Below, piece by piece: positions 17,971-52,597 of a stretch of DNA of 64,000 bases. Source of the DNA: a virus; the IMG/VR virus record IMGVR_UViG_3300044695_004134, positions 32,001 through 96,000 of that record; one strand, written 5' to 3'. The notes under the pieces are model-generated. The model had not been told where the DNA came from. It searched no databases and saw only the letters and a program-made list of their open reading frames with translations. The translations under genes and the position numbers were made by a program. The stretch's first letter is position 1. Every line of letters begins with the position of its first letter.

Positions 17971-18407
17971 TGGCATACAGTGGAAGATTTACACCTCGGA
18001 ACCCACAAAAGTATCGTGGAGACCCAAAAAATATCATTTATCGTTCGACATGGGAGTGCCGAGTGATGAACTGGCTCGACTCGAATGATACCATTATCGA
18101 ATGGGGTTCTGAGGAGTTCTCTATACCATATAAATCTCCGGTAGATAACCGTGTTCACCGTTATTTTCCTGATTTTTACGTGAAAGTTAAGCAAAAAGAT
18201 GATACAATCCGAGTGATGATTATCGAAGTAAAACCAGCAAAACAGACTAAACCGCCTGAGAAAAAGAAGAAAGTCACGAAACAATACATCCAAGAAGTGG
18301 TCACTTGGGGTATCAATGAAGCAAAATGGAAAGCCGCAACCGAGTTCTGTCTGGACCGTGGATGGGCTTTCAAAGTATTAACAGAGTATGATTTAGGATT
18401 AAAATGA
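17970..18407 (+). CDS. Head completion nuclease gp4
   Basis: YSGRFTPRNPQKYRGD, YRSTWE, WGSEE, HRYFPDFY, IEVKP, NEAKWKAA. Confidence 0.93.
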   Translation: MAYSGRFTPRNPQKYRGDPKNIIYRSTWECRVMNWLDSNDTIIEWGSEEFSIPYKSPVDNRVHRYFPDFYVKVKQKDDTIRVMIIEVKPAKQTKPPEKKKKVTKQYIQEVVTWGINEAKWKAATEFCLDRGWAFKVLTEYDLGLK

Positions 18408-20167
18408 TTAGATTACATGTGTTGTCGGTTCCACATACGGCATCGACAAAAGAGTATACGGTTTGTGCGTTTACTCAAAAAGTGATTAACTTTTGTAAAA
18501 TGTACAAAGACATGGGAATGCATGTCATTCATTATGGACGTGATGATTCCGATGTTATCTGTGATGAACATGTCACCGTCACAACACGTGCATTGAATGA
18601 GAAGGTTTACGGTATATATGACTGGAAGAATCAAGGCCTGAAATACAATCAAGAAGATGAAGTTTTCAAAACGTTTAATGACAATTGTATCGTAGAGATT
18701 GAGAAACGCAAACAGCCGCACGATATTATTCTATGTTTCTTTGGGCTGGCGCAGAAACCAGTTTGTGATGCACACTCAGATTTGATTTGTGTTGAACCTT
18801 CTATCGGTTATCCGTCCTCATTCGCACCATACAAAGTATACGAATCATATGCGGTGATGCATGGTCTCCAAGGTCCGGACAAAGTTGCAACCGCTGAATA
18901 TAAGTTCTATGATGTTGCAATTCCATCAGGCTTCGACTTGACTGAGTTTGAATTTACAGAAAAGAAAGAAGATTATTTCTTGATGTGTGGTCGCATGGTC
19001 TGGTCAAAAGGTGTTGACATTGCGGCTCAAGTGTGTGAACAACTTGGTGTAAAGTTGGTCTTGGCTGGCACCAGTTTTGGTCCGAATGACTGTAATCTTG
19101 GTGATACATGGCCTGCTCACGTTGAATATGTTGGTTATGCAGACGTAGAGAAACGTAAGAAACTTATGGCTGGCGCTAAAGGTCTATTCTGCCCAACAAT
19201 CTACAATGAGCCGTTTGGTTACGTAGCAATCGAGGCTATGCTTTCTGGAACACCTGTCATCACAGTCGATTGGGGTGCATTCACAGAAACAGTGCAACAC
19301 GGAGTTACAGGCTTCCGTTGCCGCACGTTTGAACAGTTTGTTTGGGCGGCAAAGAACATTGATACTATCTCACCACAAGCATGTCGTGAATGGGCTGAGA
19401 AGAACTATAATTTTAAAAAGATTGGTTCAATGTACAAAGAGTATTTCGAATCAATTATTAATTTGTCTAAGGGTAGTGGTTGGTATACAAAAAATGATGA
19501 ACGGAGAGAGTTGGAGTGGCTCACCAAGACGCAACCAACACAACCCAAGACGTTCAAAGAGATTCTAAATCAATACAATAGAATCAAAGATTGCAAAGTG
19601 CGTTTTCTACAGATTGGTGCCATGGACGGTGTGAAGCATGATGATTTGTATCCGTATGTAATGAGTTACGATTGGACTGGCGTTTTAGTTGAACCTCTAC
19701 CAGACATGTTTGAAAAGTTGGTTGAAAATTACACACTCAAAGATGGCTTAAAGTTTGAAAACTCCGCTATTGCTAACTCCGAAATCGTCACAATTCATAG
19801 AGTCCCGTCAGAATTGATTGGAACCGAAGATGTTCCTGATTGGGCTGAAGGCTGTTCAACGATGGTACCAAAGACACATATCCAAGATATTGTTTCCCAC
19901 ATGGTCGAACAGGAAGTCAGAGGTATCACCATCTCAAAACTGTATGAAAAATATGGCAGCCATTTTGACTTTATTCAGGTTGATACAGAAGGATATGACT
20001 ATGAGATATTCTTTCAGTTACTTGAGAATGGATTTACAGCAGAATTGCTAAAGATTGAGATTGCACACATCACTTATACAAAAGCAGTGTGGATGCGTTG
20101 GAAACTAGAACAGTCTGGTTATAAAACTTTCATTGACGGATATGACTTAATAGCCTACCAGTTCTAG
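18404..20167 (+). CDS. GT4-like glycosyltransferase fused to FkbM-family methyltransferase
   Basis: GRMVWSKG, EPFGYVAIEAMLSGTPVITVDWGAFTETV (GT-B); QIGAMDG, VEP, IQVDTEGYD (FkbM). Confidence 0.85.
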   Translation: MIRLHVLSVPHTASTKEYTVCAFTQKVINFCKMYKDMGMHVIHYGRDDSDVICDEHVTVTTRALNEKVYGIYDWKNQGLKYNQEDEVFKTFNDNCIVEIEKRKQPHDIILCFFGLAQKPVCDAHSDLICVEPSIGYPSSFAPYKVYESYAVMHGLQGPDKVATAEYKFYDVAIPSGFDLTEFEFTEKKEDYFLMCGRMVWSKGVDIAAQVCEQLGVKLVLAGTSFGPNDCNLGDTWPAHVEYVGYADVEKRKKLMAGAKGLFCPTIYNEPFGYVAIEAMLSGTPVITVDWGAFTETVQHGVTGFRCRTFEQFVWAAKNIDTISPQACREWAEKNYNFKKIGSMYKEYFESIINLSKGSGWYTKNDERRELEWLTKTQPTQPKTFKEILNQYNRIKDCKVRFLQIGAMDGVKHDDLYPYVMSYDWTGVLVEPLPDMFEKLVENYTLKDGLKFENSAIANSEIVTIHRVPSELIGTEDVPDWAEGCSTMVPKTHIQDIVSHMVEQEVRGITISKLYEKYGSHFDFIQVDTEGYDYEIFFQLLENGFTAELLKIEIAHITYTKAVWMRWKLEQSGYKTFIDGYDLIAYQF

Positions 20168-28900: not shown

Positions 28901-29419
28901 GTGGATCACGAGATTGCAGTCTCTATCCACTCTAACATGAAAGACCATGCCAGCATGAAAATTAACACATCTTTTTATGTTTACGCATATCTCCGAGACA
29001 ACGGAACTCCATATTACATAGGTAAAGGTTCTGGAAAAAGGATATACAGTAAACACAACATAAAATTACCAAAAGACGTATCTAAAATAATATTCGTAGA
29101 GAAGAATTTGACAGAAATTGGAGCTTTTGCCATCGAACGTAGTTTAATACGTTGGTATGGAAGAAAGGATAACAATACTGGCATATTAAGAAATCTAACG
29201 AACGGCGGAGAAGGTGGTTCAGGTGCAATACGAACTTCGGAACACCGAAAACTTATTAGTAATGCTATGCTTGGAAATTCCAGAGCAAAGGGTCATAAAA
29301 GACCAGGAACGAAACCTGAACTAAACAAACATAAAATTTATATGAGTTGTTTACATTGCAATAAACAATTTAACATTGGTAATTTTACCAAACATATAAA
29401 TTCACTAAAAGCCGGATGA
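28901..29419 (+). mobile_element. Second GIY-YIG-type homing endonuclease (true start may be ATG 28937 or 28955)
   Basis: FYVYAYLRDNGTPYYIGKG, ERSLIRWYGRKD, LRNLTNGGEG; opposite strand to neighbours; paralog of 11003..11665. Confidence 0.85.
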
Positions 29420-29441
29420 TTGGATAATAAGGACATCCGGC
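29407..29441 (-). terminator. 3' hairpin/terminator of tmRNA coding piece
   Basis: GCCGGATG...CATCCGGC stem followed by TTTT on minus strand. Confidence 0.6.
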
Positions 29442-29716
29442 AAAACCTCAGCTTAGCCTCAAGCGGCTAGGCGATATTCACTGTCGTTTGCAGTTACTTT
29501 GATTTAGTTTTTACACCTACTCTGGTGAGTTGTCCACTTCTGTACTTGTTGCCCTGTCGAATAGCTGAGTACACCCCCATCAAAAGCACTTCCCGATTTA
29601 CATTCCCCCGAATACATCATTTCTGGTTCGGCTAATACGCAAATGCTTTTGGTGGAGGTGGGGGGATTTGCACCCCCGTCCAGAACACTTTTCTAGTTGC
29701 TTCATACAACCATAGC
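29407..29716 (-). ncRNA. ssrA: Circularly permuted (two-piece) tmRNA
   Basis: Acceptor piece ends GGACGGGGGTGCAAATCCCCCCACCTCCACCA at 29650; intervening segment; coding piece starts GGGGGTGTA..TTCGAC at 29578; G3:U70 pair; tag frame 29491-29459 ANDSEYRLAA*. Confidence 0.93.
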
Positions 29717-29720
29717 CCCT

Positions 29721-29749
29721 ATTATAGAGGTTTTTTATTTAGGTGTCAA
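29721..29749 (-). promoter_or_regulatory. Consensus sigma70 promoter for tmRNA
   Basis: TTGACA-17 bp-TATAAT. Confidence 0.9.
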
Positions 29750-29766
29750 GCGTTTTTGTGGTAAAT

Positions 29767-31761: not shown

Positions 31762-32937
31762 ATGTCATCAATACTAAAAACGGATAAAGTTTCAGTAACC
31801 AACCCTCTATCATACACAAATGCACCATCGACTCCTGCGGTTTCAGGCACGATTGATATAGAGACTCAAAGTACGATGAGTGCGATTAACAAGAATCAAT
31901 TTTTCGGCAGCAGAATTAGGACTAGAATCTCCAGTGGAATAACTAGCAATGCGGCGCCAGCCGGCGCCAATTGGGCAAGAGGTACGGCAAATGGTGTTTC
32001 CGTTCTTGATTTTTATAGTTCGACTTCAGGTCCAGCTGTATCAACGGCATATGCACATTTATATACTACTACCAGTTCACCTGCGAGTACTGAAAATACA
32101 GATATATCAGCCCAAGTTGGCGCATACGACAATCCATCGTCCGGCCCAATTGGTCAACCTATGGTATACAGTAACCTTCCGACTATAGACTCAGGTTTAG
32201 CTGTGAATAATTTTGGTACGATTGTCAAAAATAGATTGGTAGTGGAAGGAAATGACAATGTTTCTACCGGTGTCAGTGCCATCGGACTTAAAATTGTCAA
32301 CAAAAGTCCTAACCCCGGTTCTGTCAACACGCCACTGGTATATCTACATCATAGAAGTCAATTTCCCACCACTGGTCCATCAGTTTATATGGCGTTTCAA
32401 AATGGACCTACAGAAACTGGTTCCATTTTTACTTCATCCACAACAACAAGTTATTCGACAAGTTCGGATTACAGACTAAAAGAAAATATCAATCCTGTTG
32501 AATCAGGACTCGACATTATTGCGGCACTTAGACCAAGATCGTGGACATGGAAAATAAATAATGAAGAAGATATGGGCTTTATTGCTCATGAAGTTCAAGA
32601 AGATGCGCCACAAATTGCAGGTTCAGTGAGTGGTAAAAAAGATGAAGTCATACGTTTTGGTAAACTAATTGATGCAAACGGTGATGCTAAACTTGCCATG
32701 GAAAGTGATGAGGAGTTACAAGTTCCAGAACCATCCGAAGAAGATGCCGCAAGATATGCCAGCGAAGGTTACACATGGACACACTTCAGAGATGAGCCTC
32801 TCTATCAAGGAATCGACACATCATTTATGGTTGCTCCGCTTGTGTCGGCAGTTAAAGAACTAAAAGCTATTGTTGACCAACAACAAGCGCAAATAACAAC
32901 ACTTGAACAGAGAATTACTGCTCTAGAGACTGCTTAA
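31762..32937 (+). CDS. Fibre/spike protein with C-terminal intramolecular chaperone (peptidase S74) domain
   Basis: TSSDYRLKENI, GFIAHEVQE, LVSAVKELK plus coiled-coil end. Confidence 0.85.
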   Translation: MSSILKTDKVSVTNPLSYTNAPSTPAVSGTIDIETQSTMSAINKNQFFGSRIRTRISSGITSNAAPAGANWARGTANGVSVLDFYSSTSGPAVSTAYAHLYTTTSSPASTENTDISAQVGAYDNPSSGPIGQPMVYSNLPTIDSGLAVNNFGTIVKNRLVVEGNDNVSTGVSAIGLKIVNKSPNPGSVNTPLVYLHHRSQFPTTGPSVYMAFQNGPTETGSIFTSSTTTSYSTSSDYRLKENINPVESGLDIIAALRPRSWTWKINNEEDMGFIAHEVQEDAPQIAGSVSGKKDEVIRFGKLIDANGDAKLAMESDEELQVPEPSEEDAARYASEGYTWTHFRDEPLYQGIDTSFMVAPLVSAVKELKAIVDQQQAQITTLEQRITALETA

Positions 32938-44573: not shown

Positions 44574-45746
44574 TTAGAATGGTACTTCATCATCAGGTGA
44601 GGTCGGCATCACAGGTGCGGTGTTTGCCTCCGCCACTTTGATATCAACTTTCGAATACAGGTCAAGGAACGAATCCTTGGTTTCTTGGTCAAAACGATTC
44701 ACACAGAGTTGAATTGCCTTCGAACGGTCTTTGAAGATTGAATAAGTCTTTGCAATGTGGACCAAACGGCGAGTGGAGACAATCTCATCGACACCACCTT
44801 CGGCAAATGTCTTACGAATCACATCAGCCCACTTTACAAGATTTTCCGCAAACTCATCATCATTCAACAATGGTTTGAGAATCTTGAGTTCAACTTTGGA
44901 CTCTGGATATTCCTGTTCAACGGTGATGTTGAAACGCTCAAGGAACGCATCATCAAGAATCTGTGAGAGGTAACGACCTTCTTCAGAGCCACGGCCTTTG
45001 GTGTTTGCAGTAGCAACAACGTTGAAGCCACGTTTTGGATAGATGTATTCACCAGACTTTTTGTTGAAGTATGGCTTGCCTTCCAGAATACCTTGGAGGC
45101 ACATGAGTTTGTTAGAACCACGGTCAACTTCGTCAATCAAGAGAATTGCACCACGTTTCATGGCTGTCATCACAGGACCATCACGGTACACCACGTTACC
45201 GTCAATCAGTGTAGGACCACCAATCAGGTCAGATTCATCAGTCTCAACGGAGATGTTCACACGGATGCATTCACGTTTGAGTGTGGCACACACTTGTTCA
45301 ACCATCAGGGTTTTGCCATTGCCTGACATACCAGTAATGAACACGGGGAAGAATTCCTGTGATAGCACAATCGAGGTCAGGTCTTTGTAGAAACCAAAAG
45401 GAACATAGCCTTGGTATTTTTCAGGGATAGAAGTATCTGCATGGTCTTCAAGTTTCTTTTGACGGAGAACATGGACAGTGGCAGTTTGTGTCAATTCGAC
45501 AACGGCAGGTTCTTCCGTAACCATTGCAGTTACGGCATGACGCACAGCGTTTGGTGCATCAGGAAGAAGGTATTGACCACGACCGGAACGAAACTCTTGG
45601 CGAGTGACAAACCAGAAGGGATAAGGAACAGACCGTTCATCAACAACGTGTTGAATTTGGTCACGACTCAAAATTGCATTCTCACCGAAAATCTCAGTAG
45701 CGGCTTGGACGAATGCTTTTGCATTACGATTCATAAAGTTCTCCAT
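44574..45746 (-). CDS. CobS/MoxR-like AAA+ ATPase of T4-like phages
   Basis: FITGMSGNGKT, ETDESDLIGG, LLIDEVD, ATANTKGRGS, AFLERF, STRRLVHI. Confidence 0.9.
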   Translation of the reverse strand: MENFMNRNAKAFVQAATEIFGENAILSRDQIQHVVDERSVPYPFWFVTRQEFRSGRGQYLLPDAPNAVRHAVTAMVTEEPAVVELTQTATVHVLRQKKLEDHADTSIPEKYQGYVPFGFYKDLTSIVLSQEFFPVFITGMSGNGKTLMVEQVCATLKRECIRVNISVETDESDLIGGPTLIDGNVVYRDGPVMTAMKRGAILLIDEVDRGSNKLMCLQGILEGKPYFNKKSGEYIYPKRGFNVVATANTKGRGSEEGRYLSQILDDAFLERFNITVEQEYPESKVELKILKPLLNDDEFAENLVKWADVIRKTFAEGGVDEIVSTRRLVHIAKTYSIFKDRSKAIQLCVNRFDQETKDSFLDLYSKVDIKVAEANTAPVMPTSPDDEVPF

Positions 45747-47840: not shown

Positions 47841-48299
47841 TTAAACTGTTCGTTCATATGTGGACGGTCCAAGTTTGGCATCAACCATTTTATGGTTTGT
47901 AATACCTTCAAAGAAGTTTTCATTGGGACGCTTAATCACATATGCCAAGCGGCCGCCAAAATATACAGCAAACTGCGCCAAGAGGTCCGATTCAATCACA
48001 CAAACATATGCAGATGTAATGGCTTGACCACCAACGCCACCAAAACCTAATGCGGTGCTAGACCAAGTTTGTACAAACATAGAATATACGGTTAGGTCAT
48101 ACAATGAATGTTTGCGAGACTTTTCAACATAACAATCAGCAGGTGCAATTGCAGTTTTCATTTCTTCACGGGTTAGTGTAGACCGCCATGCATCATGCTT
48201 GGCCCAATTACGGTCCTGATACTTGTATTCAGGAAATGCCTCATATGCGGCATGTGCCATAGCACCAGCGAGTGTTTCAATAGGGTTAGTTGCGTTCAT
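47841..48299 (-). CDS. Hypothetical protein
   Basis: F.QTWSSTALGFGGVGGQAIT.AY, VYFGGRLAY. Confidence 0.65.
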   Translation of the reverse strand: MNATNPIETLAGAMAHAAYEAFPEYKYQDRNWAKHDAWRSTLTREEMKTAIAPADCYVEKSRKHSLYDLTVYSMFVQTWSSTALGFGGVGGQAITSAYVCVIESDLLAQFAVYFGGRLAYVIKRPNENFFEGITNHKMVDAKLGPSTYERTV

Positions 48300-48520
48300 T
48301 CTTTAACTCCAAAATGTTCATCATACTTGTCTAACATTCGTGCAAATGCAGAGAATGATAACTCTTGTCGGTTTAGTTCAATACATTCTTTCGCAATCAA
48401 CTCGGCAAATTTTTGGTCACGAATATCATGCCAATCTGGATGGTACTCTCCCGGCTGTTGAATTTTGTTATCTGTATATTCATCGGCTTGTTCAGCCAGT
48501 TCTTGAATTCTTTTGTTCAT
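48296..48520 (-). CDS. MNERI/KFAELI/HFGVE microprotein family, copy 1
   Basis: MNKRIQELAEQA...KFAELIAKEC...HFGVKE. Confidence 0.8.
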   Translation of the reverse strand: MNKRIQELAEQADEYTDNKIQQPGEYHPDWHDIRDQKFAELIAKECIELNRQELSFSAFARMLDKYDEHFGVKE

Positions 48521-48858
48521 CTTGATATACTCAGTTCAGCATCAGGATTATCCCAACATGCATTACGATACTTGTATACAAAATTCTGAAGACCATCATA
48601 TGAACCCCAACCATTCTCAGGGTTAAAGGTCATAAAGTGGTTTGGTTCAGATAACAGAATATTCCATCCTTCATCCAGAAGTTCAGAAATATCTTTCGCC
48701 AACACCAAACCGTGCTCATCAGGTCGCCACAATACATCATACAGTGACAGTCCATTTGAGAGTTTAACCTCTTTGGCCATTTTACCTAGATTGTGTGTGA
48801 TGTTATTGTAATAAACAGATACGGGTTGTGTAACCATCAACTCAACATCAAGGCTCAT
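48517..48858 (-). CDS. Conserved phage hypothetical protein
   Basis: NITHNLGKMA, LWRP, NPENGWGSY. Confidence 0.7.
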   Translation of the reverse strand: MSLDVELMVTQPVSVYYNNITHNLGKMAKEVKLSNGLSLYDVLWRPDEHGLVLAKDISELLDEGWNILLSEPNHFMTFNPENGWGSYDGLQNFVYKYRNACWDNPDAELSISR

Positions 48859-49292
48859 TTACTTTCTCTTTTCATATAGAAGTCACGAATCGCTCTTGCA
48901 TCATGAAGTGCATTATGTGGCACCATAGATTCATACTTAATGCTAAAGTCAAGTTCAAACTTAATATTCGTTGGCATTACAATTCGTTCACCTGGACCTG
49001 TAATCATTGCTTCACAGAAATATCGAATATCATCTGGCCAATCTGCAACGATTATAATTTCATCATATTCAATATTCAGGAGGTACCTTGAGAATGCGAG
49101 TTGAAACTCACTGTAACTCGCCGGTACTAGAAACATGTGTGGCGCAACGTTTACTTGAACCCATGTATCAAGTTGGTCTTTCACTTCAATTTCACAATAA
49201 AACTCTGGTGCGTTTAGATTCTCTGGCACCAAAGCCATTGACATTAGTTTACCACCGAATCCATTGAATTCGGTATCAAGAAAAAATCTCAT
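48855..49292 (-). CDS. DEDDh 3'-5' exonuclease (Rv2179c-like)
   Basis: FFLDTEF, ADWPDD, HNALHDARA. Confidence 0.8.
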   Translation of the reverse strand: MRFFLDTEFNGFGGKLMSMALVPENLNAPEFYCEIEVKDQLDTWVQVNVAPHMFLVPASYSEFQLAFSRYLLNIEYDEIIIVADWPDDIRYFCEAMITGPGERIVMPTNIKFELDFSIKYESMVPHNALHDARAIRDFYMKRESK

Positions 49293-49543
49293 TCTTCAAC
49301 TCCAAAATGTTTTTTAATATAATCCGCCGCAATGACAGGAGTGTGACCATAGTCAGTTTCAATTTCCACATACACATTAGGAAATAACCCAGCACATTTA
49401 CTGATAATCAACTCGGCGAACTTTTCCAACTCATAATCATATGAACATGACCAATCCACCACGGCATCAACTGGTGCGTGTTCCTCACCGTCCCACATTA
49501 GAAAACCGGCTTCATCGGCCAATTCTTTAATTAGTTTCTTCAT
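49289..49543 (-). CDS. MNERI/KFAELI/HFGVE microprotein family, copy 2
   Basis: LIKELADEAG...EKFAELIISKC...IKKHFGVEE. Confidence 0.8.
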   Translation of the reverse strand: MKKLIKELADEAGFLMWDGEEHAPVDAVVDWSCSYDYELEKFAELIISKCAGLFPNVYVEIETDYGHTPVIAADYIKKHFGVEE

Positions 49544-49770
49544 TTATAATCCTTACCAAAAATCTTCCTTTTGAATGCGGCAATTTCCATATCATCTTCA
49601 CGTTCAGCAATCACATTCATTTCAAACTCCGATGGATAATGACGGAGCAAAGACTTTGCATCCCTCCGAACGGATAGCGGCACACGTGGTGTTTTCTTTG
49701 GATCAAGTAGTGAGATAAGAAACTTTTCAGTTCGAATCACCGCATTGGTTCGTTCTATAGGTACAGTCAT
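49540..49770 (-). CDS. Conserved phage hypothetical protein
   Basis: MT.P.ERTNAV..FL..L.DPK.TPRVP..VR..A..LLRHYP. Confidence 0.7.
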   Translation of the reverse strand: MTVPIERTNAVIRTEKFLISLLDPKKTPRVPLSVRRDAKSLLRHYPSEFEMNVIAEREDDMEIAAFKRKIFGKDYK

Positions 49771-50198
49771 AGTTTTTCCACAATAATTTTATTTCCAAAA
49801 TCTTCACCAAATGAGATATTCTCATGGTAAACTTTCACTAGCCCTTTACGGGAGAGTCCTTCAATAGCAAGGAAACCACAGAATGAATTCATACGGAGTG
49901 TAATCCCATCAGCATCCTGTGATTGTTCGAGTCCTTCACCAGTGGCTAGCATCTCCGAAATCAATAGAATTTCCGAAAGGCGTGGGTTTTCCTCATTATC
50001 GGCAACCTTTAGTAGTGCGTCCACATCTGCATCAGTGAGGGACTTTAGAAAATCACCTGGTCGCATATAACCGGACTCAGAAAGGTCCATTGCCAGTGTA
50101 CGGGTAATGGGTAGAAAGTCCTTCTCCTTCATCACATTATCATATGAAATGACAATCGGACCGTCTTCAAAATCATTATCTTCAATTCGTTCGTTCAT
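49767..50198 (-). CDS. Hypothetical protein (begins with the MNERI block)
   Basis: Operon-coupled; starts ATGAACGAACGAAT. Confidence 0.6.
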   Translation of the reverse strand: MNERIEDNDFEDGPIVISYDNVMKEKDFLPITRTLAMDLSESGYMRPGDFLKSLTDADVDALLKVADNEENPRLSEILLISEMLATGEGLEQSQDADGITLRMNSFCGFLAIEGLSRKGLVKVYHENISFGEDFGNKIIVEKL

Positions 50199-50425
50199 AC
50201 AATTTTACCCAGAATTCCGTAAATTAATTCATCCAGTTCAGCCTGATAGTCTTTACCAATCCTACGCTTTTCATAGAGTGACTGGAGAATCATACGCATT
50301 TCATCACCATCAACAAAATTTAGATTATAGTCCTTACCCCGTTTTTCCAGTTCGGCAATAAGTGCATCATCGGAGAGTTCTTCAAGAATATCCTCAGAAT
50401 CAACATAGGTGTTTACGTACGGCAT
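50195..50425 (-). CDS. Hypothetical protein
   Basis: Operon-coupled ORF, AGGAG RBS. Confidence 0.6.
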   Translation of the reverse strand: MPYVNTYVDSEDILEELSDDALIAELEKRGKDYNLNFVDGDEMRMILQSLYEKRRIGKDYQAELDELIYGILGKIV

Positions 50426-50835
50426 TATGCATTCTCCTTTTCAGTGCAAAATTTAGTGAATTGAACCCATGGACCAGTAAACAGGTGCTCACGTCCCCAA
50501 CCAAAAACGGTGATACGGTCAGAGTAAATGTGATACTCATATTCTTGACCACAATCATCGGTTGAAATTGGGTAGAGATAGAAACCACCAGCACCAACTT
50601 TAAAATGTGCTACCAATTGGGCGGCTAAGCAACCCATGCCATTAGCCAGTTTCCGTGTATCACCAACAGGAATACCATTGGTGATGGCTTCAAACTGATT
50701 CAAGAATGCGGCAAGTTCGGAGCCATGACCAGTTGGGTAGCCGTCAAACTGTCGGTACATATTGATAATAGGCTCAGGACCAGTGGTAGAGCCATAATGG
50801 TCGGTGTAAACAAAAGTGAGTGAACGTGTACCCAT
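50425..50835 (-). CDS. Conserved phage hypothetical protein
   Basis: MGTRSLT, YRQFDGYP.GHG, NGMGCLAAQLVAHFK, EYEY. Confidence 0.7.
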   Translation of the reverse strand: MGTRSLTFVYTDHYGSTTGPEPIINMYRQFDGYPTGHGSELAAFLNQFEAITNGIPVGDTRKLANGMGCLAAQLVAHFKVGAGGFYLYPISTDDCGQEYEYHIYSDRITVFGWGREHLFTGPWVQFTKFCTEKENA

Positions 50836-50870
50836 GAGATTTCCTTTGGAGTTTGTTTGTGTATGTGTCT

Positions 50871-50899
50871 ATTGTACCAGAGTCCTTGGTACTTGGCAA
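50871..50899 (-). promoter_or_regulatory. Early promoter TTGCCA-17-TACAAT
   Basis: Direct match. Confidence 0.75.
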
Positions 50900-50914
50900 G
50901 TCAGCTAGAAGTAT

Positions 50915-51082
50915 TCACTTTTCGAATGATTCAATCCATGCAACCAGAACCTTCCTAGCTTCGGTGCGGGAAATACCGAATTCCGTTTCCAGATACGGTG
51001 CCGCACCCCACATATTGGTTTCACCAGAATCCCGTAGTGCAACGAGATAATCAAAATATTCTTTAGTTTGTTCGTCCATCAT
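50915..51082 (-). CDS. Small hypothetical protein (not in ORF track)
   Basis: MMDEQTKEYFDYLVALRDSGETNMWGAAPYLETEFGISRTEARKVLVAWIESFEK*. Confidence 0.65.
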   Translation of the reverse strand: MMDEQTKEYFDYLVALRDSGETNMWGAAPYLETEFGISRTEARKVLVAWIESFEK

Positions 51083-51297
51083 TCAACTCCAAAATGTTTC
51101 TTTACGTCTGCAATACACCTACGGACTTCCATGTCCTCACGGTTCAAATCACCCATGAATCGTTTTTGAAGGACGGAGATAGTTTCTTTAGCAATCAACT
51201 CGGCGAACTTTTCAGTAAATGTAGTTTGCCAAACTCCAGGTCCCCAGCCTTCGGCCAAAGCAGCCTCTCTAGCAAGTTTTTGAATTCGTTCGTTCAT
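51079..51297 (-). CDS. MNERI/KFAELI/HFGVE microprotein family, copy 3
   Basis: MNERIQKLAREA...EKFAELIAKE...KKHFGVE. Confidence 0.8.
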   Translation of the reverse strand: MNERIQKLAREAALAEGWGPGVWQTTFTEKFAELIAKETISVLQKRFMGDLNREDMEVRRCIADVKKHFGVE

Positions 51298-51509
51298 TCT
51301 TCAACTCCGAAATGTTGTTTAATTGATGTTTTGATGTTTTCTGCTTTGACAGACTGTCCCATATCATACTGGTCATATTCATCATCGTTGGATTCGTGCT
51401 CACATTGTTTTATACATTCACGCACAATCAACTCGGCGAACTTGTTAGAATCAAAACCACATTCAGTTTCTGATTGTTTCATTAGTTCTTTTAATAAAAT
51501 GTAGTTCAT
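51294..51509 (-). CDS. MNERI/KFAELI/HFGVE microprotein family, copy 4
   Basis: KFAELIVRECI...IKQHFGVEE. Confidence 0.8.
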   Translation of the reverse strand: MNYILLKELMKQSETECGFDSNKFAELIVRECIKQCEHESNDDEYDQYDMGQSVKAENIKTSIKQHFGVEE

Positions 51510-51778
51510 TCTTCAACTCCAAAATGTTTTTCAATCACGGCTATATTATCAACACATTGCATTGAGCAAATTTCATATTCCCCAGCCAACTGCCAATTGG
51601 CTTCTGTCGAATACAATTCAGAGAATCTTTCCGATTCGTTAAATAATACATCTCCACATTCGTGAATAATCGAGAGAGCGAATTTCTCTTTATCAAAAGT
51701 CACACGGTCAAAGCCATTATCCACACCATACTCAATGGTGGTAGCCTGTTCAATAAGTTCTTGTATTCGTTCGTTCAT
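51506..51778 (-). CDS. MNERI/KFAELI/HFGVE microprotein family, copy 5
   Basis: MNERIQELIEQA...EKFALSIIHEC...EKHFGVEE; GGAG RBS. Confidence 0.8.
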   Translation of the reverse strand: MNERIQELIEQATTIEYGVDNGFDRVTFDKEKFALSIIHECGDVLFNESERFSELYSTEANWQLAGEYEICSMQCVDNIAVIEKHFGVEE

Positions 51779-52530: not shown

Positions 52531-52597
52531 ATTATACACGATCCGTAGAGAATGGCAACCTACTAGAAAAGTTCTCCATCCGTCCGGTCAAGTATTG
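52531..52597 (-). promoter_or_regulatory. Early promoter TTGCCA-16-TATAAT with AGTTCTCCATCC / CCGGTCAAGTATT boxes
   Basis: Direct match; boxes recur near 54.9-57.1 kb. Confidence 0.75.

Follow-up and report, generated by a model that had tools for sequence, protein, structure and literature searches.

Exchangeable segments between three conserved DNA blocks in a widespread family of small viral genes

The window analysed here, a stretch of 64,000 nucleotides from the virus record IMGVR_UViG_3300044695_004134 of IMG/VR (positions 32,001 to 96,000 of 166,193 bp), contains five related small genes of 71-90 codons, all on the minus strand. These genes, called cassettes in the following and numbered as copies 1 to 5 (Table 1), are 36-44 % identical end to end, and nearly all of this identity comes from the start (MNERI.EL), the centre (KFAELI..EC) and the end (HFGVEE) of the proteins. 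On the DNA level the three regions appear as a 5' block, ATGAACGAACGAATT, a central block, AAGTTCGCCGAGTTGATT, and a 3' block, CATTTYGGAGTTGAAGAATGA. The 3' block, with up to two mismatches, occurred five times against 0.02 occurrences expected from shuffled sequences, the central block, with up to three mismatches, four times against 0.03. With block counts so far above those of the shuffles, the family of five copies and three DNA blocks proposed in a preliminary description of the window was confirmed, as were the degeneration of the 5' block in two copies and the near-identity of the central block in four. Every copy ends in an ATGA overlap, the stop codon TGA lying within the ATGA and the ATG being the start codon of the next open reading frame (ORF); this initiation of the following gene, also described before, was seen in all five cases. 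The overlap leads from copy 5 to copy 4, from copy 4 to copy 3, from copy 3 to a gene for 55 amino acids (50915-51082), from copy 2 to an RNase H-like gene (48855-49292, phrog_2259) and from copy 1 to a gene for 152 amino acids (47841-48299). The segments between the blocks are of unequal length and could not be aligned; in the four copies that were classed they belong to distinct sequence clusters, in agreement with their earlier designation as unrelated. A scan with a hidden Markov model (HMM) yielded exactly five family copies in the whole virus record.

Table 1. Cassettes, promoter-like sites and cassette footprint in the window (aa, amino acids)
Feature	Coordinates	Strand	Characteristics
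Copy 5	51506..51778	-	90 aa from ATG at 51778; 5' block exact; centre degenerate (KFALSI, 51668-51685); 3' block exact
Copy 4	51294..51509	-	71 aa; 5' block degenerate (MNYIL); centre exact (51426-51443); 3' block with 1 mismatch
Copy 3	51079..51297	-	72 aa; 5' block exact; centre exact (51193-51210); ends HFGVE-stop
Copy 2	49289..49543	-	84 aa; 5' block degenerate (MKKLI); centre exact (49406-49423); 3' block exact
Copy 1	48296..48520	-	74 aa; 5' block near (MNKRI); centre with 2 mismatches (48395-48412); ends HFGVKE-stop
Sigma-70-like promoter	52531..52558	-	TTGCCA-16-TATAAT, 11/12; upstream of copies 5-4-3; consensus match only
Sigma-70-like promoter	50871..50899	-	TTGCCA-17-TACAAT with TG; consensus match only
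Footprint of a deleted cassette	50187..50198	-	ATGAACGAACGA (MNER) fused in frame to codon 2 of an unrelated 143-aa ORF (49767-50198)

The family is very large and previously undescribed; it is unnamed in the databases searched and occurs in no cultured phage of the searched collection. A profile of 94 members, searched against 1.84 billion representatives clustered at 50 % identity, matched 9,956 of these clusters with E ≤ 1e-3 and 2,488 with E ≤ 1e-10, and a word-indexed protein search gave at least 7,843 significant matches. Source annotations, where a name was given, read 'hypothetical'. The HMM scan of 80 fetched loci and the window genome (81 viral sources) recovered 257 members, with a maximum of 11 within 8 kb. 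Complete genomes carried 3-17 copies each, and the IMG/VR contigs bearing the family had sizes of 4 to 374 kb. The proteins are acidic (median isoelectric point 4.9), about 75 amino acids long and have the consensus MNERIKELAEQA; reading frames were intact in more than 250 copies. For none of the five copies was there a Pfam-A match below E = 0.07 or a PHROGs v4 match at E ≤ 0.01, and a profile search against PDB sequences gave nothing better than E = 0.011. Searches with blastn and tblastn against 50,697 isolate phage records, a collection that may lack records near the window genome, yielded no match. The ESM Atlas returned only viral hypotheticals, the BFVD only uncharacterised proteins of uncultured phages. 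One homolog, P0065, had a match to TscA below the threshold (20 bits, cut-off 27). A full-text literature search for the peptide motifs gave no paper, and searches by topic gave no description of the cassette family. Fused, longer forms were rare (39) and had assorted partners; with partners so haphazard, no stable fusion hints at a function. The bacterial genome collection contributed 12 matches, all on short contigs of metagenome-assembled genomes (MAGs) with mixed taxonomic affiliation. These members are probably mis-binned phage DNA, thus a host was not assigned from them. The contigs concerned (loci L086-L097) were in MAGs including Rhodoferax, Aquiluna, Burkholderiales, Bacteroidetes, Luteolibacter and an Erysipelotrichaceae MAG.

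For 314 distinct proteins the variable segments on the N-terminal and the C-terminal side of the central block were clustered separately. The 191 N-types and 175 C-types occurred in 257 combinations. Two or more C-partners were observed for 31 N-types (at most 11 partners), two or more N-partners for 19 C-types (at most 31), and ten pairs of N-types passed the four-gamete test, having two C-types in common and existing in all four combinations. The first 120 homologs already included proteins in which the N-segment of copy 5 was joined to the C-segments of copies 2, 3, 4 and others, and that of copy 1 to the C-segment of copy 3. A DNA breakpoint profile was anchored on the K codon of KFAELI. 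Pairs with the same N- and different C-segments had a DNA identity of about 0.8 up to nucleotide +29, beyond which it fell to 0.37 and then 0.29. Pairs with different N- and the same C-segments were at a random level of 0.23-0.35 up to nucleotide -7 and at 0.64-0.85 thereafter. The two switches delimit an exchange zone of approximately 36 nucleotides that spans (E)KFAELIV(R/K)EC. The exchange of partners, the four-gamete pairs and the sharp breaks at the central block support the earlier suggestion of a diversification by recombination between short homology blocks. Within the variable modules the ratio of nonsynonymous to synonymous differences (pN/pS) was 0.21-0.22 at a synonymous divergence above 0.5, hence each module type is a protein part under selection.

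Exchange was also visible between close relatives. Eleven syntenic loci were fetched via the RNase H-like neighbour gene; in three of them, L098, L099 and L100, most flanking genes were approximately 75-97 % identical in protein to those of the window, a few lower. At the site before the 55-amino-acid gene (site A), the cassettes of the window and of these three relatives all carry the C-module of copy 3 (ETISVLQKRFMGDLNREDMEVRRC), each with a different N-module. Compared to copy 3, the DNA identity in L098-L100 was 0.07-0.47 over the 75 nucleotides before the central block and mostly 0.87-1.00 from the block on, single 15-nucleotide windows falling to 0.53; in L099 and L100 the high identity runs on through the downstream gene. 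The reassortment of variable segments with breakpoints in the blocks, as predicted by the preliminary description, was thus observed for the central block both family-wide and at an orthologous locus. Whole cassettes vary as well. Site A holds three cassettes in the window and 2, 1, 2 and 0 in relatives. At site B, before the RNase H-like gene, L098-L100 have no counterpart of copy 2, while L101 and L105 have a different cassette and L103 has three, likewise different from copy 2. At site C, before the 152-amino-acid gene, L098 has two unrelated ORFs in place of copy 1 and L099 is empty. Altogether, gain, loss or replacement of cassettes was found at four sites among L098-L105 and the window. 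In L098 the cassette adjoining the ortholog of copy 3 (674-997) has a broken 3' end, ...HFEVDILELKNERRTNERIF, that crosses a junction word in a different frame and gives the impression of a third cassette in decay.

AlphaFold2 models were obtained with family alignments for copies 3 and 5. The copy 3 model has three helices (residues 3-16, 23-44 and 53-69) with a predicted local distance difference test score (pLDDT) of 88.6 and a predicted template modelling score of 0.73; the copy 5 model has a helix (3-11), a beta-hairpin (13-28) and two further helices (30-58 and 62-86) with a pLDDT of 94.4. According to the predicted topology, the start of helix 2 (KFAELI) would adjoin the end of helix 3 (HFGV) in an antiparallel hairpin, with helix 1 (MNERI.EL) packing on both, and the three constant blocks would make up one base of a three-helix fold. 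Variable part 1 appears in the models as an insert after helix 1, either a loop or a beta-hairpin, and variable part 2 as the distal tip of the hairpin formed by helices 2 and 3, longer in the longer members. As both variable parts are self-contained, any combination can be expected to fold. The scaffold with two variable loops of the preliminary description was therefore roughly right, the models having a conserved three-helix base, a loop or beta-hairpin as part 1 and the tip of a helical hairpin as part 2. Searches of both models with Foldseek against the PDB and with a wide VIA-align comparison matched nothing beyond generic helical structures (best Z 6.6 and 8.0). Two other roles of the blocks were rejected by eye: RNA pairing between the blocks could reach only 4-5 bp and the copies of the window lack even that, and for a metal site in the constant base C39 and H68 are too far apart by helix geometry.

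Codon use was compared in 218 distinct members between the blocks and the background of the same genes. In the 5' block, arginine was encoded by CGA (97 % versus 25 % in the background) and asparagine by AAC (90 versus 39 %). The central block used AAG for lysine (86 versus 29 %), TTC for phenylalanine (76 versus 29 %), GCC for alanine (77 versus 22 %), GAG for glutamate (89 versus 17 %) and TTG for leucine (92 versus 27 %), and the 3' block GGA for glycine (99 versus 32 %) and GTT for valine (90 versus 41 %). The block codons are strongly fixed, and they are the minor codons of these genes. In pairs of members with unrelated modules, the codon identity at identical residues was 0.82 in the 5' block, 0.74 in the centre and 0.81 in the 3' block, compared to 0.60-0.63 in homologous modules and 0.46 by chance. 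The proportion of synonymous differences (pS) after Nei and Gojobori was 0.36 for the 5' block, 0.24 for the last seven codons and, over all pairs, 0.49 for the central block; compared with 0.53 and 0.63 in homologous modules, the ends differ clearly and the centre modestly. The codons of V-x-E-C adjoining the central block were saturated (pS 0.70) despite conserved amino acids, so that the nucleotide constraint is local to the 18-nucleotide word. With minor codons fixed and codon identities of 0.74-0.82, the synonymous sites of the blocks are not saturated, as had been anticipated. An ordinary paralogous family, in which the blocks are kept for the protein core and for the ribosome-binding site of the next gene while the variable parts diverged by mutation and recombination has no role, would account for the coincidence of the blocks with the predicted packing core, for GGAG and ATG in the 3' block as a plausible ribosome-binding site, and for a central-block pS close to the module values. 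It does not explain how one N-module is joined to up to 11 unrelated C-modules and the reverse, nor the four-gamete cases and the sharp DNA breakpoints at the block edges. Variable parts that differ in length and cannot be aligned reflect replacement rather than drift, and a fixation of minor codons cannot be produced by selection on the protein level. We consider such a family extremely improbable.

The 3' block is part of a junction that recurs with changing neighbours. An ATGA overlap terminates 163 of 232 members; the next gene is a family member in 52 cases and something else in 110. The downstream genes outside the family are diverse, 105 of them forming 97 clusters. Five types of C-module precede differing genes, and of the seven downstream genes that recur, two follow C-modules of more than one type. 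The 15-nucleotide word GGAGTTGAAGAATGA was counted 96 times at the ends of family members and 14 times in other places, where chance would give a random 15-mer about 0.001 times. Four unrelated ORFs of 35-61 amino acids are bracketed on both sides by the GGAGTTGAAGAATGA junction (L024:3383 region, L052:3989, L059:5812 and L077:4353); these mini-ORFs carry a grafted ...GVEE or ...GVKE tail, and one has a zinc-ribbon-like pattern, CxxC...HKC. At three other sites the junction word is a non-coding remnant behind a stop codon. Among 411 GGAG-N7-ATG sites in the loci, the exact spacer TTGAAGA was found in 135. In tandem arrays the end and start blocks are merged into one conserved word of about 32 nucleotides. 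The DNA upstream of family genes that follow non-family genes contained no conserved block, thus the 5' block begins at the ATG. The characterisation of the 3' block as a portable coupling joint is borne out by the overlaps, the diversity of the downstream genes, the bracketed ORFs and the remnants; the translational coupling at the junction itself is suggested by the arrangement of the signals.

The preliminary description had also noted that the 5' block starts an unrelated ORF of 143 amino acids (Table 1). This start is real, and its origin could be traced. The ORF begins with the 5' block in its exact 15-nucleotide form, and the 14-nucleotide word of the block at this ORF was the sole occurrence outside the family in 732 kb of related DNA. 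Approximately 14 of 70 homologs of the ORF start with MNER or MNKR; most start with MDDFDFED or a similar sequence and have four residues less. In L103 and L104 this very position is occupied by a complete cassette, between an upstream gene for 76 amino acids and the ORF: the upstream gene reads ...GGTAAAATTGT-ATGAACGAACGACTT..., the cassette end ...GGAGTTAAAGA-ATG-ATTGAAGAT.... In the window and L098 the same end of the upstream gene is followed by ATGAACGAACGA, joined directly to ATTGAAGAT in the window and present as ATGAACGAACGA-AACGAAGAT in L098. L099-L101 have neither cassette nor footprint, and the ORF starts with MDDFDFED behind its own Shine-Dalgarno sequence AAGGAG. The three states of the site in related phages show that the MNER start is what an in-frame deletion left of a cassette. 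This bears on a further explanation, namely that the constant N-terminus is a capsid-targeting leader and the cassettes encode polymorphic proteins packed into the head and injected. The internal proteins of phage T4 are encoded by polymorphic genes; they have a short conserved leader at the N-terminus in common, and the prohead protease cuts it after (L/I)-x-E. The family consensus contains the fitting motifs IKE and LAE, and the leader was found on an unrelated ORF too, but there the deletion of a cassette explains its presence. The centre and the C-terminus are as conserved as the N-terminus, and in the models the first ten residues (pLDDT 91-93) lie within the folded base with conserved I5 and L8 and do not form a detachable appendage. 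Moreover, the genes are located among small ORFs behind sigma-70-like promoters and not in a head-gene block. A leader function is very improbable.

Footprints and non-coding junction remnants would also be left by selfish DNA, that is, by cassettes that spread and multiply by means of the junction and central repeats while their proteins are of little or no benefit to the phage. The free variation of copy number and presence among close relatives and the distribution over contigs of 4 to 374 kb are in line with this explanation. On the other hand, the module types are under purifying selection, with a pN/pS of about 0.2, more than 250 copies have intact frames, the models predict folds with confidence, and a signature of an associated nuclease, integrase or transposase was absent from the window genome. 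Selfish spread of this kind is improbable.

We regard it as likely that the genes form a family of cassettes with two slots, in which the same three blocks serve as base of the fold, as homology patches and as translation start of the next gene. The blocks MNERI.EL, (E)KFAELIV.EC and I..HFGVEE would encode the base, with two self-contained variable modules between them. Being nearly constant in their DNA, the blocks would act as short patches of homology at which co-infecting phages, and also tandem copies, recombine: a crossover within the central block would exchange N- against C-modules, one in the end/start junction would add, delete or replace whole cassettes and neighbouring genes. The end block would provide a ribosome-binding site (GGAG, followed by seven nucleotides) and the overlapping start (ATGA) of the following gene, so that a swapped-in gene could be translated by coupling without signals of its own. 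The recombination pathway may be a general homologous or short-homology one, e.g., of the UvsX type; a RecA/UvsX-like gene is present in the genome. In the 166-kb genome neither PF00589 (tyrosine recombinase/integrase) nor RVT_1 (reverse transcriptase) had a match, and between positions 48200 and 51900 there were no inverted repeats of at least 12 nucleotides, no stem-loops and no palindromic sites. For this genome, mechanisms of the integron or diversity-generating retroelement type are therefore excluded. Several observations weigh against the two-slot reading. The pS of the central block (0.49) is only modestly below that of the modules (0.53 and 0.63), and its DNA-level signal depends mainly on the choice of codons against the background. 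The conservation of the 3' block is explained in part by the ribosome-binding site alone. In members with reassorting modules the blocks were no nearer to the consensus than in singletons (p = 0.38 and 0.92), which does not separate a selection of the blocks as signals from their homogenisation by recombination. The reassortment of downstream genes has few informative cases (two of seven gene clusters, five C-modules). A characterised protein was matched neither by sequence nor by fold in Pfam, PHROG, PDB, Foldseek, BFVD and ESM Atlas, and promoter calls in the region were no more frequent than in shuffled sequences (27 versus 22.6).

Shuffling via short conserved linkers is an old idea in phage biology, documented for promoter-early stem-loops (PeSLs) and for tail-fibre adhesins. 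In T4-type phages, PeSLs are non-coding promoter/terminator repeats that shuffle ORFs in hyperplastic regions (Arbiol et al. 2010, PMC2839356; Comeau et al. 2014, PMC4122927). In both systems short conserved expression signals recur between small non-essential genes of the plastic regions in T4-like genomes, and genes are inserted, deleted and replaced by recombination between the repeats, which bound such changes between close relatives. PeSLs, however, are intergenic and consist of promoter and terminator, whereas the cassette joint is coding and comprises the final codons of a gene together with the initial codons of its successor; it contains a Shine-Dalgarno sequence and a start codon in overlap, but no promoter, stem-loop or intergenic DNA. 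In addition, the cassettes have a third repeat inside the gene that shuffles protein halves. The cassettes were not counted among the PeSLs, since their junctions are ATGA overlaps, the region lacks the inverted repeats, and promoter-like sites are located only at 50899 and 52558. In the gp38 adhesins of T2/T6-type phages, hypervariable segments are set apart by conserved glycine-rich motifs, at which exchanges occur (Trojet et al. 2011, PMC3157838). The cassettes share conserved core motifs between hypervariable segments and exchange at these motifs, a resemblance of design and not homology. Whereas gp38 is a single-copy virion protein for receptor binding, the cassettes are located in a non-structural region and encode multi-copy helical microproteins of about 75 amino acids; their end block serves at the same time as translation start of the next gene. 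Homology to gp38 was rejected: the blocks (MNERI, KFAELI, HFGVEE) are helical and not glycine-rich, Pfam and PHROG gave no match, and there is no sequence relationship.

Integron gene-cassette arrays have also been reported in phages (PMC9892861). Like these, the cassettes form arrays of small, mostly unknown ORFs with a repeated junction and are gained and lost one at a time. Integrons depend on the tyrosine recombinase IntI and palindromic attC sites, while the cassette junction is a coding word of 15-32 nucleotides with a ribosome-binding site; without a PF00589 match in the genome and without inverted repeats in the region, membership was rejected. A diversity-generating retroelement was dismissed as well, for want of an RVT_1 match in the genome and because the variable segments are of unequal length and unalignable, versus an equal-length repeat pair that differs at adenines. 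The modular theory of Botstein and Campbell with its conserved linkers and the polymorphic toxin cassettes with conserved pre-toxin motifs (PMC3482391) share with the cassettes a constant segment beside a replaceable module and an exchange that leaves the protein intact. Those systems swap whole genes or large C-terminal domains; the cassettes swap two slots within about 75 amino acids, and a toxin/immunity pair was not evident. New in the family described here is that the principle operates inside and between tiny genes, with joints that would be protein core, crossover site and translation-coupling signal at once. It offers a natural case for gauging how little homology phage recombination needs, for asking whether evolvability signals are maintained at synonymous sites, and for mining a ready-made library of small folded binders.

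Regarding the function, the design of the proteins suggests, tentatively and with somewhat less than an even chance, a repertoire of small proteins that bind or inhibit variable proteins of the host, for host takeover or counter-defence. The cassettes resemble phage genes of these two kinds in several respects, namely in the many diversified copies, the constant base with variable tips, the small and acidic proteins, the position among small genes behind sigma-70-like sites and the ease with which close relatives gain and lose them. Should host defences be the targets, a large and so far untapped reservoir of counter-defence proteins would lie in this family. A wider proposal, which we consider rather unlikely, is that the blocks are a maintained and shared 'recombination grammar', by which unrelated freshwater phages, from T4-like to 370-kb jumbo phages, draw on a common pool of modules. 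The system would then be an integrase-free generator of binder repertoires against variable host targets, e.g., defence systems, and the junction would permit a plug-and-play translation of captured genes.

The cassettes are accompanied by a run of small unknown ORFs and an AAA_33 kinase, and baseplate and tail genes of a myovirus are located elsewhere in the window. The promoter-like site at 50871..50899 lies in the one intergenic gap that the region has, ahead of the gene run with copies 2 and 1. The sigma-70-like sites may point to early expression of the cassettes. Four high-scoring sigma-70-like sites, all on the minus strand (53199, 52558, 53632 and 50899), have the -35 hexamer TTGCCA in common and spacers of 16-17 nucleotides; with this unusual hexamer they may represent one promoter class of an early-looking region. 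Outside this region, a transfer-messenger RNA (tmRNA) of the betaproteobacterial type was identified on the minus strand at 29385-29763 (ARAGORN tag ANDSEYRLAA; Rfam beta_tmRNA RF01850, 104 bits, E = 1.3e-30), and a beta-type tmRNA in a phage points to a betaproteobacterial host. A gene on the minus strand at 44574-45746 had a strong PHROG match to a 'porphyrin biosynthesis' auxiliary gene (phrog_249, E = 1.5e-108), and a plus-strand gene at 18404-20167 matched a glycosyltransferase (phrog_3408, E = 4e-124).

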